From: an uncultured bacterium
GTDB taxonomy: Bacteria > Patescibacteriota > Minisyncoccia > Phycocordibacterales > PALSA-1337
NCBI GenBank assembly: GCA_903872035.1
Contig: CAIQIZ010000011.1
Coordinates: forward strand, 1-54,024
DNA length: 54,024 nt
Direction of reading: 5' to 3'
The position numbers and the translations under genes are program-made. This document shows positions 24,330 through 26,570 of the stretch, one piece after another (within the stretch, counting starts at the first letter, position 1; every line of letters starts with the position of its first letter). A model generated the notes under the pieces. It was not told where the DNA came from, ran no database searches, and saw only the letters and a list, made by a program, of their open reading frames with translations.

Positions 24330-26570
24330 CTAACCTCGAAGAAGCTTCAAAAACTCTTCTTCCGAAATGATCTCTACCCCCAGCTCGCGGGCTTTATCGA
24401 GCTTCGATCCGGCCTCCTCTCCAGCCACCACGAATGAGGTCTTCTTAGATACGGAACTGGAGACATCGCCGCCATTCTCTCTGACCATCGCTTGTGCTGC
24501 CTCTCTTTCCAGGGTTGGCAACGACCCTGTGAAGACAAAGGACTTGCCTTCCAGCTTCTTTGCGCCAGTCGTCTGTTCCGCTTGTATCTCAACGTGTTTT
24601 AATAGATTCTTCACCAGCTTCCTATTTTCGGCGATCTTGAACCAGGAAGAGATCGATTCAGCAACCTTCGGACCAACGCCGCGGATCGATTCGAAATCTT
24701 CCTTTTCTGCTATCAAAATCATTTCTAGTGGTTCTTGTCGACGAGAGGAGTAAGTCTCGCTTCGCCGCTGGCCCACAGCGCTCGAATCAAGGCTTACTCC
24801 TCTCGCCGCCAAAGCCTCAAAATATCTAGCAATGTCATAAGCCGTCTCTTCACCGACTTGAGGAATAGAAAGGGACGCTAAAAACCTTGGTAAAGCGATC
24901 ACACGAGACTTCTGTATGGCAGCAATGAGATTATCTGCAGACTTTTCAGCAAATCTTTCCAAATTGAGAAGGTCACCTTTCTTCATGGTAAATATGTCAT
25001 CAAAGGTCGAAATCAGACCAGCTTCGATCAATTGATTGAGTATAGCGGGACCTAGACCATCGATATCGAAACACTTCTTCGAAGTGAAATAATGGAACCG
25101 TCGCTTCTGTTGTTCAAAAGAATCCTTATTAATACAACGCCAAGCCGCCTCTCCGGGAACTCTCTCGATGAGGCCGTCACCACCACAAGCTAGCACGTGA
25201 GTCGGCCATCTGAAAGGTCTGGAATCCTTTGGACGCAATTCCCCGACGACGCTCACTATGTCTGGAATTACGTCGCCAGCCTTCTGTAAGATCACGGTGT
25301 CGCCTATCCGAACATCCAACCTCTTGATCTCATCTTCATTGTGAAGCGTCGCTCGCGAGACGGTGGAGCCAGCCACCAAAACCGGTCTCAAGACCGCCAC
25401 CGGCGTGATCACTCCGGTGCGCCCAACTTGAAATACGATGTCCTCCAAAACAGTTGTAACTTGCTCCGCCGGAAACTTGTATGCCACGCCCCAACGCGGA
25501 GATTTACCTGTATAGCCGAGCGCCTCTTGGATCTTTCGCGAATTGATTTTAATGACTATTCCGTCTAGACCATAATCGAGATCGTGCCGTTTCTTTGTCC
25601 ATCCTTCATAGAATTTTTGAATGCCGTGAACAGAATCAAATATACGATAATGTTCATTGACTTTAAATCCAAGCTTAGCGAGCAATTGCAGCTCTTCAGC
25701 CTGAGTCTGTGGCATCCCGGCGTCAGAAAAAGCGTTTTCGGCTCGAGCGCTGTTGGCCAGCGGCGAGACGGAAATGCTTTTTCTGACACCGGAATCGAGT
25801 TTCTCAATATCATAAATGTAAGAATCCAATTTCCTCGACGCCGTTATCTTCGGATCCAATTGCCTCAAAGATCCAGCCGCCAGATTGCGCGTATTGGCAT
25901 AAAGAGGCTCGTCAGCCTTTTTTCTCTCTTCATTTATTCTCGCCAATTCTTTTGTGGCCATCCAGATCTCTCCGACAGCGATCAAGGAGCCAGGAGGAAA
26001 GAGTGAGGAGGAGGAGGAAGTCTGTTTTTCTGCGTTCCTTCCTGCTTCCTCCTTCCTGCCTCCTCCTAATTTAAGCGGCACCGAATATATAGTTTTCACA
26101 TTAACCGTCACGTCCTCCCCGACGACCCCATCTCCTCTCGTGGCTGCCTGAACCAAAACACCATTCTCATAAGTCAAAACGACTTTAAGTCCGTCGAATT
26201 TCAGTTCGCAGCAATACTCCAGTTTCTCTCCCTCAACGCCAGCTTTGCGCATGAAGTTTTGCACTTTCTCCTCCCATTTCTTTAATTCATTAAAATCAAA
26301 AACATCGTCGAAAGACCATTGAGGCACAGCATGTTTGACCTTGGTAAATTCTTTGAGAGGTTCCCCACCGACTCGTTCAGTCGGACTATCAGACGTCTTC
26401 AGGTCTGGGTATTCTGTTTCAATAGATTCGAGCTCCCTGATCAACGAATCATAAGCCTCATCAGAGATCTCGGGCTTATCGAGCGTATGATACAAATACC
26501 TATGTCGCTCAAGGCTTTTTTTGAGCTTTACTAGGCGGTCTCCGACCTCTTTAGGCACATAAGAATTCAT
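24330..26570 (-). CDS. ligA: NAD-dependent DNA ligase with three in-frame insertions
   Basis: ELKFDG adenylation motif, [36 protein letters not shown], HhH motifs and C-terminal BRCT (FVFTGSL...GSKLDKA). Confidence 0.97.
24735..24812. repeat. In-frame palindromic element in ligA (copy A)
   Basis: Arms TTGTCGACGAGAGGAGTAAGTCT (24735-24757) and 24790-24812 match at 20/23; central core 24762-24785. Confidence 0.85.
25714..25795. repeat. In-frame palindromic element in ligA (copy B)
   Basis: Arms ATCCCGGCGTCAGAAAAAGCGTTTTCG (25714-25740) and 25769-25795 match at 23/27; core TCGAGCGCTGTTGGCCAGCGGCGA at 25743-25766. Confidence 0.85.
25985..26067. repeat. In-frame inverted heptad-repeat insert in ligA
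   Basis: Purine heptads aggagcc-aggagga-aagagtg-aggagga, then pyrimidine heptads ttccttc-ctgcttc-ctccttc-ctgcctc; encodes [27 protein letters not shown]. Confidence 0.7.

Follow-up and report, generated by a model that had tools for sequence, protein, structure and literature searches.

Introduction

Palindromic repeats lodged inside protein-coding genes have been described before. Many Rickettsia genes contain in-frame insertions of Rickettsia palindromic elements (RPEs; Ogata et al. 2000, summarized in PMC10969869), and intragenic repetitive extragenic palindromic (REP) sequences of the GTAG and CGTC types, often dimers coding for 20–30 residues, occur in uvrA/B, dnaE, DNA ligase and tRNA-ligase genes, the CGTC type being presented there as lacking a dedicated transposase (Di Nocera et al., PMC3733652). 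Here we analyze a stretch of 54,024 nucleotides (the window) from an uncultured patescibacterium, in which ligA, the gene for NAD-dependent DNA ligase, carries two hairpin inserts of one repeat family that we call family 1. The window corresponds to contig C11 of a genome (G000) of 1.05 Mb in 31 contigs that is rated 100% complete, and the sequencing runs that hold the organism are freshwater or lake metagenomes. We consider it probable, though well short of certain, that the inserts are two copies of a species-restricted, non-autonomous palindromic family of about 50 copies that has spread as strand-defined single-stranded DNA (ssDNA).

Family 1 resembles the RPEs, as portrayed in PMC10969869, in being a set of short palindromic repeats in a small genome, many of them in frame in unrelated housekeeping genes, where they encode an extra peptide and favor one dominant frame. 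It differs in phylum, which here is Patescibacteria, in unit length (66–78 nt against about 100–150 nt for RPEs), and by description: RPE families are defined in that account by conserved sequence and peptide, whereas family 1 conserves the apex alone, with arms that covary freely. With the REPs of PMC3733652 it shares hairpin repeats thought to move as ssDNA and the same favored hosts (uvrB, dnaE, DNA ligase and tRNA-ligase genes), but its conserved model columns 33–52 read GAGCGCTGTGGGCCAGCGGC on the forward strand, with neither a GTAG nor a CGTC tag there or on the complement. Nor does family 1 flank the gene resembling a REP-associated tyrosine transposase (RAYT) in this genome, whereas a GTAG-type family, here called family 2, does. 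REPINs, as characterized in PMC3116915 and PMC3337134, have conserved REP arms and a variable spacer, whereas family 1 has a conserved center and variable arms. The coding palindromes of Nematomorpha mitochondria, going by the account in PMC6649704, are likewise long hairpins inside translated genes in which protein and pairing are preserved together, but they are gene-specific inverted repeats of conserved coding sequence and not a dispersed family with a common apex.

The first-pass annotation of the window had put the inserts forward as a candidate for an undescribed system; set against the published accounts of in-frame RPEs (PMC10969869) and intragenic REPs (PMC3733652), that claim is too strong. 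The kind is known, and family 1 is not filed in any named family. What differs here is the phylum, the pattern of fixed apex and free arms, the absence of both tags, and a strand-specific wobble combined with a strong codon-phase bias. The literature searched, in a partly noisy search, held no description of such elements in the Candidate Phyla Radiation (CPR)/Patescibacteria.

A further comparison is offered by attC sites and the end hairpins of IS200/IS605 elements, in which a folded single strand is recognized, structure is kept over sequence, and unpaired bases mark the strand. The attC sites conserve the base of the stem and not the apex; IS200/IS605 elements show a replication-orientation bias and often carry tnpB. 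Family 1 is like attC in that structure is conserved more than sequence, but it conserves the apex on a variable stem. It differs from IS200/IS605 in showing no orientation bias (24:26 relative to local GC skew, a rough test across 31 contigs), and no TnpB domain was found in the genome.

Two ligA inserts share an apical hairpin

The ligA product retains all of its LigA Pfam domains, and three segments within it are longer than in its homologs. The features of the locus are as follows.

24330..26570, minus strand: ligA (NAD-dependent DNA ligase, 746 aa), an open reading frame (ORF) with Pfam adenylation, OB, HhH and BRCT domains that hosts two family-1 copies
24735..24812, minus strand: family-1 copy A, an inverted repeat; covariance-model match 24732–24815, 70.9 bits
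24762..24785, minus strand: apical core of copy A, with a 5-bp stem CGCTG/CAGCG, loop TGGGC and a 2x1 internal loop
25714..25795, plus strand: family-1 copy B, an inverted repeat; covariance-model match 25713–25796, 72.2 bits
25743..25766, plus strand: apical core of copy B, with a single loop change (TTGGC, not TGGGC)
25985..26067, minus strand: third ligA insert (site C, about 22 aa), purine-rich with weak inverted repeats; not family 1

The core TCGAGCGCTGTTGGCCAGCGGCGA at 25743–25766 (plus strand) is matched at 23 of 24 positions, in the opposite orientation, at 24762–24785 (minus strand). These two cores, whose positions agree with the first-pass annotation, are the only matches in the window at up to three mismatches, where none is expected by chance and none of 100 shuffles gave any. 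As had also been claimed, each core stands at the tip of a long inverted repeat, with arms at 24735–24764/24783–24812 in copy A and 25714–25745/25764–25795 in copy B. Folded as ssDNA, the respective 84-nt stretches reach −30.7 kcal/mol (z = −7.5) and −32.6 kcal/mol (z = −7.7), and none of 200 shuffles was as good in either case. Copy A lies in the linker between the HhH and BRCT domains (site A), with the element forward strand on the ligA sense strand, and copy B lies in a loop of the adenylation domain (site B), with its forward strand antisense to ligA. Each encodes 26 residues, and the frame stays open through both, with the differing peptides ...SSAVGQRR... and ...SPLANSAR... that were originally read from it.

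The LigA homologs are at most 74% identical to this protein (the nearest three at 74, 71 and 70%), and their source names are Paceibacterota, Patescibacteria or Parcubacteria. Among 120 homologs, site A has 23 residues in 68, the three nearest included, against 51 here; site B has a commonest length of 22 against 46 here; and site C has 19 residues in 46 homologs against 41 here. Because site A is empty in those 68 homologs, the whole hairpin (26–28 aa) is an insertion, and fold-back insertion, in which the arms would have been copied from the host flank, was rejected on the same ground. Together the three inserts contribute about 74 extra residues and account for a product of 746 rather than about 672 aa, in agreement with the early estimate of about 670. 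In an AlphaFold2 model of LigA (mean pLDDT 78.9) the inserts are predicted as low-confidence loops between confident domains: successive 10-residue insert blocks score 49/50, 52/45 and 68/52 against 85–93 for flanking blocks, with copy A at 68 and 52 against about 90 in its flanks and copy B below 50 across residues 265–282.

The third insert had been counted with the other two toward the length of the protein, but it is not of their family: its DNA fold is weak (z = −2.4, with 5 of 200 shuffles as good) and the family-1 model, run over the whole genome, gave no match there. Its GGAAGGAGG-type purine run recurs at C9:68209-68252, C28:58272-58300, C18:47695-47723, C2:17569-17598 and C29:65473-65495, and also in the flank of a family-1 copy at C21:69225; these purine repeats may be a separate coding microsatellite family.

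The lengths of the same three LigA loops vary across the clade. At or near these loops, the ligA genes of 5 of 15 relatives hold strong, nearly perfect palindromes of unrelated sequence (L044, L047, L048, L052 and L058, from G010, G014, G011, G004 and G043, respectively), and a pattern of same loop but different palindrome may be general in the clade.

A fixed apex on a covarying stem

Across the genome, a 20-mer from the apex has 36 matches at up to two mismatches, compared with none for the reversed control, and 39 at up to three. A covariance model built from 33 family-1 copies returned 55 matches, of which five are opposite-strand re-hits, leaving 50 places, 49 of them with E ≤ 4e-8 for the 1.05-Mb genome. 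The statistics given here are based on 46 ungapped 84-nt matches. The copies dropped are those at C2:46503, which is 111 nt long with extra apex bases and lies within lepA, C8:17042, which lies between rpmE and a release-factor gene and not at the end of an insertion sequence (IS), C28:70929, and C10:863.

Information content is 1.3–2.0 bits at model columns 33–52 and drops to the background level beyond columns 9/10 and 75/76, so that the unit is about 66 nt; the stem extends to about 78 nt in some copies, giving a range of 66–78 nt. The apex is a 20-nt imperfect stem-loop, GAG-CGCTG-TGGGC-CAGCG-GC, comprised of a G-C pair, a 2x1 internal loop, the 5-bp stem and the loop TGGGC. The internal loop has AG opposite G in 33 of 46 copies and GG opposite A in four. 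Below it is a lower stem of about 23 bp. Mean pairwise identity is 0.83 in the core, which is nearly invariant in genic and intergenic copies alike, and 0.42 in the arms, yet pairing between the two arms of one copy is 0.86, compared with 0.54 when a 5′ arm is set against the 3′ arms of other copies. Of 957 stem cells 88.1% are paired, against 63.8% when partners are shuffled and 34–45% when they are slid; changes on both sides are found in 26 of 29 pairs, with 254 double-change cells against 80 in shuffles, a value that none of 500 shuffles reached. Relatedness of the sequences inflates these covariation counts, although the slid-partner control, which keeps relatedness, is also far lower. 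The first-pass annotation, from two copies, had thus correctly proposed a multi-copy element with a fixed apical hairpin and a variable stem. Its description of the arms as unrelated is nearly true of the ligA pair, but across all copies the arms grade into one another around a loose consensus that is most evident in the intergenic copies. Capture of the arms from elsewhere in the genome was considered and rejected, as blastn-short searches with the 46 5′ arms gave only chance matches of 15–17 nt and the purine microsatellite.

The wobble pairs reveal which strand is constrained. On the element forward strand G·T outnumbers A·C by 52:12 (p = 5e-7), and it does so in every class of copy: 21:4 in intergenic copies, 18:5 in those co-oriented with a gene and 13:3 in gene-antisense copies. 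Counted on the mRNA strand, the ratio is 21:18. Folded as DNA, the forward strand is also more stable than its complement in 42 of 46 copies, and among the antisense genic copies this is so in 9 of 9. Since the G·T excess follows the element strand, the constraint is on one strand of the element and not on the host transcript, which points to a strand-specific ssDNA hairpin rather than an mRNA structure and agrees with the ssDNA side of the RNA/ssDNA tag that had been proposed from the two ligA copies.

Paired stems could also persist without mobility, if the copies were old immobile insertions whose quasi-palindromes are "corrected" by template switching during replication. This would suit the genic copies, which are much diverged (0.65–0.83 identity to the nearest copy) yet 0.85 paired; it would suit the palindromes that relatives hold at the same ligA loops, since palindrome formation or retention seems common in the clade; and it would suit a genome in which no mobilizing enzyme was found for family 1. 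Template switching should, however, yield perfect Watson-Crick stems on both strands and not a wobble excess on one of them, and it should erase the asymmetric internal loop, the AG/G form of which most copies retain. The gap in conservation between apex and arms moreover calls for sequence-specific selection. We therefore regard this explanation as improbable.

Distribution and setting in genes

The whole genome and its relatives were searched for the element, as the early reading had suggested, and the search succeeded in the genome only: the family-1 model matched none of 60 relatives (0 of 36 congeners and 0 of 24 from other families of the order). A 13-mer from the apex has 26 occurrences in this genome, and of 400 genomes of the order (223 genera) two have a single one. 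Across 185,579 species genomes, the 20-mer has four single, core-only matches at chance level, in DNA of 64–71% GC and none of them in Rickettsia. Of nine metagenome contigs containing the 20-mer, five have full elements and match this genome at 100% identity, and the others are core-only chance matches in high-GC DNA. Family 1 is restricted to this species, as far as sampled. Intergenic copies are 0.88–0.94 identical to their nearest copy, against mostly 0.65–0.83 for genic copies, and this intergenic near-identity is a sign of recent activity. No Rfam family scored above threshold for the element (best 25.8 bits against a gathering score of 97); the candidates were sub-threshold look-alikes of miRNA precursors, which are expected for any long hairpin, and a known RNA family was rejected.

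Two further loci carry related structures. At C28:63780-63837 a 58-nt hairpin with an unrelated 22-bp stem keeps only CTGTGGGCCAG at its tip, and could be a very diverged relative of family 1 or an independent use of the same loop. At C10:33954-34349 (L019 1135-1422) two inverted family-1 copies bracket a 95-aa ORF between lexA and rmuC, in which we recognized no transposase features.

More than half of the copies (27 of 46) lie in ORFs of at least 200 aa, all of which are open through the element, so that the in-frame colonization of essential genes first suspected at ligA holds for the genome at large. Such ORFs cover 76% of the genome, and genic copies are mildly depleted relative to this (p = 0.015). 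Hosts were named by Pfam on 20 host ORFs and ligA; one further host, C2:33119-34108, with its copy at the extreme N-terminus, was counted but lies outside that scan. SecA carries three copies, and UvrB, SMC, LigA and a SAM-methyltransferase-like protein carry two each; other hosts include DnaE, DnaG, LepA, TypA, GatB, MetRS, IleRS, TsaD, RsmH, a beta-CASP RNase, a class-V aminotransferase and dihydroorotate dehydrogenase. The IleRS ORF (C21:51961-55575, L100) is itself unusual, as its 1204 aa include a histidine-phosphatase domain (PF00300, residues 548–715) inside the synthetase in addition to its family-1 copy.

This list of hosts, enriched for replication and repair genes as Di Nocera et al. 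also noted for intragenic REPs (PMC3733652), could be taken to mean that the hairpins are host DNA sites, kept locus by locus because a nucleoid, replication, repair or DNA-uptake protein reads the apical loop. The near-invariance of the apex within and between genes would fit. A site of this kind is nevertheless difficult to reconcile with the lack of any family-1 match in the 60 relatives and with a single, chance-level apex match in each of only two genomes of the order, as a host function would then have to be a very recent invention; and the placement in protein loops, in both orientations and in clusters of two or three per gene, looks like tolerated insertion. A host function seems to us quite improbable.

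The copies are oriented with the host gene in 18 cases and against it in nine, and 23 of the 27 share one codon phase, in which 15 read ...SAVGQR(R/Q)... and eight the mirror ...SPLAHSA.... In this phase a codon boundary falls on the center of symmetry of the element, and an element spanning columns 10–75 fits exactly between two codons. Of 19 intergenic copies, the numbers open in each of the six frames are 13, 5, 11, 14, 15 and 12, and frame openness of this kind predicts about 39% of copies in the shared phase, compared with the observed 85% (p = 8e-7). The codon-phase bias may stem from selection on the peptide or from the way the element inserts. The inserts are probably read through as about 22–28 extra residues, judging by the open frames.

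A hairpin that folds this strongly might instead act in RNA, either by regulating translation or decay as an mRNA structure or by being cut out of the transcript as an intervening sequence, and many REPs are thought to act as RNA according to PMC3733652. The G·T/A·C asymmetry tracks the element strand even in antisense copies, however, and not the mRNA strand; the host frame stays open through all 27 genic copies, a feature that excision from the RNA would make unnecessary; and the Rfam scores stay far below gathering. An RNA role is, in our judgment, very improbable. An assembly artefact or chimera at the repeat, for which one might cite the contigs of one run (X6) that break inside copy B, can be dismissed, given that single, independently built Logan contigs from runs of three studies, which may include the source sample, span the whole ligA stretch with 0 differences and that the frame is intact through both inserts.

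The same contigs bear on empty sites, which the first-pass annotation proposed to look for among LigA orthologs. Empty sites are present between species, at site A as described above, but no insert-free ligA allele was seen in the contigs of the three studies; joints that resemble empty alleles were rejected as cross-matches from other family copies (sides of 20–26 nt).

The RAYT-like gene is flanked by family 2

As had been stated from the start, the window contains no mobilizing enzyme. Elsewhere in the genome a single Y1/IS200-like gene, which is RAYT-like and the sole HUH candidate detected, was found.

G000:C18:5440-6215 (L059 1209-1990): Y1 gene with family-2 hairpins

The gene itself (C18:5578-6177, 200 aa) scores 31.7 bits with Pfam Y1_Tnp, above the cut-off, and 38.4 bits with NCBIfam REP_Tyr_transpos, below the cut-off of 80. 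Its translation includes an H-I-H triplet and a YVHLNP stretch, which we take to be the HUH and catalytic-tyrosine motifs. Upstream of the gene lies GGAGGTCAGACCTAT...ATAGGTCTGACCTA and downstream of it ATAGGTCTGACCTC, all of family 2 (GAGGTCAGACC-type) and not of family 1. The family-2 motif GAGGTNNNACCTC occurs 13 times in the genome, compared with zero to one for eight control palindromes, and sites of the AGGTCTGACCT type frequently have GTAG in front of them and lie in intergenic clusters. Y1/RAYT homologs are present in 26 of the 60 relatives, and at least five copies of the family-2 motif are found in 17 of these 26 but in only 3 of the 34 RAYT-negative genomes (Fisher p = 5e-6, although kin are not independent). 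The RAYT-like gene and family 2 are a classical REP-RAYT system in Patescibacteria. The suggested link between the inserts and a RAYT thus stands insofar as such a gene exists in the genome, but the gene is flanked by a different REP family; it has its own classical REPs, and we found no partner for family 1. Co-occurrence of family 1 and RAYT was likewise not seen in the 60 relatives, of which 26 have RAYT homologs and none has family 1.

Two small hairpins next to or at the end of ligA resemble family 2. One, CGAGGTCTAACCTCG at 24323–24339, contains the family-2 motif and overlaps the final ligA codons together with the stop. The other, at 23148–23190, is a 43-nt near-perfect hairpin (GGAGGCCAGGCCT...AGGCCTGGCCTC) of the family-2 REP type within the adjoining 489-aa amidase (gatA-like) ORF, and a similar hairpin lies in gatB (C15:9574-9616).

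Proposed explanation

The reading that we favor as probable, of a non-autonomous family spread as one strand of ssDNA, draws on the dispersed family itself, its species restriction, the covariation and strand asymmetry of its stems, its in-frame position in housekeeping genes and its codon-phase bias; from these we infer mobility, an ssDNA intermediate and translation. The apex stem-loop would be the putative sequence-specific recognition site, while the lower stem would need only to pair. The element would spread, or have spread, as one defined single strand, in the manner of HUH/Y1-transposase substrates (REPs, IS200/IS605 ends) or folded attC sites. Lineages retaining the hairpin would stay mobile, which would give rise to compensatory change in the arms, and copies that land in protein surface loops or linkers would survive and be read as extra residues, since the unit length is divisible by three and most frames through it are open.

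Several observations weigh against this explanation. No enzyme was tied to family 1 in the genome: the copy nearest to the Y1 gene is about 850 nt off, inside rsmH; neither a TnpB nor a DDE_Tnp_1 domain was found; and of four IS3-like rve genes, the three loci compared share no sequence with family 1 by nhmmer. Two reverse-transcriptase (RT) genes and two tyrosine recombinases were also located. We saw no empty-site allele, target duplication or excision product among sequences in which the nearest LigA is 74% identical and the metagenome copies are 100% identical. The unbiased orientation weighs against strict lagging-strand targeting of the IS200/IS605 type, because such targeting predicts a bias. 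The genic copies are old by their identity to the nearest copy, so that their present mobility is not shown. The shared apex itself contributes to the folding difference between forward and reverse strands, which makes the forward-fold count weaker evidence than the G·T count, and translation of the inserts is predicted from open frames only.

A bolder version holds that family 1 is a new type of ssDNA hairpin element, with the 20-nt apex and its asymmetric internal loop as sole sequence determinant, moved not by the REP-associated Y1 enzyme but by a nuclease that is either unrecognized or brought in by a phage or plasmid, and with a preference for codon boundaries. Such an entry preference would account for the one symmetric phase seen in 23 of 27 genic copies, where frame openness by itself predicts about 39%. 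We think this version doubtful.

With densely coding genomes of about 1 Mb, Patescibacteria (Candidate Phyla Radiation) leave selfish DNA hardly any place other than genes. In this case 21 mostly essential genes carry 22–28 extra residues from one repeat family, and at the same protein loops orthologs in sister species have palindromes of a different kind. This offers one concrete cause for the many lineage-specific protein insertions in these bacteria, and it is a caution for annotation and structure prediction, where such segments should be recognized as derived from repeats. The 50 copies, with their fixed apex, covarying arms and strand-specific wobble, are also a natural data set for how hairpins are kept up under protein-coding constraint. 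If the enzyme should prove new, it would represent a compact, structure-guided DNA insertion system.

Other observations

Both ends of the short contig C13 (about 9.9 kb) have GC-rich 50-nt hairpins, to which hairpins at C9:98477-98525 and C25:30285-30333 (the end of C25) are related, and the contig also holds a reverse-transcriptase gene (C13:8772-9374); the C13 unit may be a separate retroelement or mobile unit. In the window itself, the GC skew of the first 10 kb of the contig (positions 1–10000) is strongly negative, at −0.22 and −0.34 in 5-kb bins compared with about −0.06 elsewhere.

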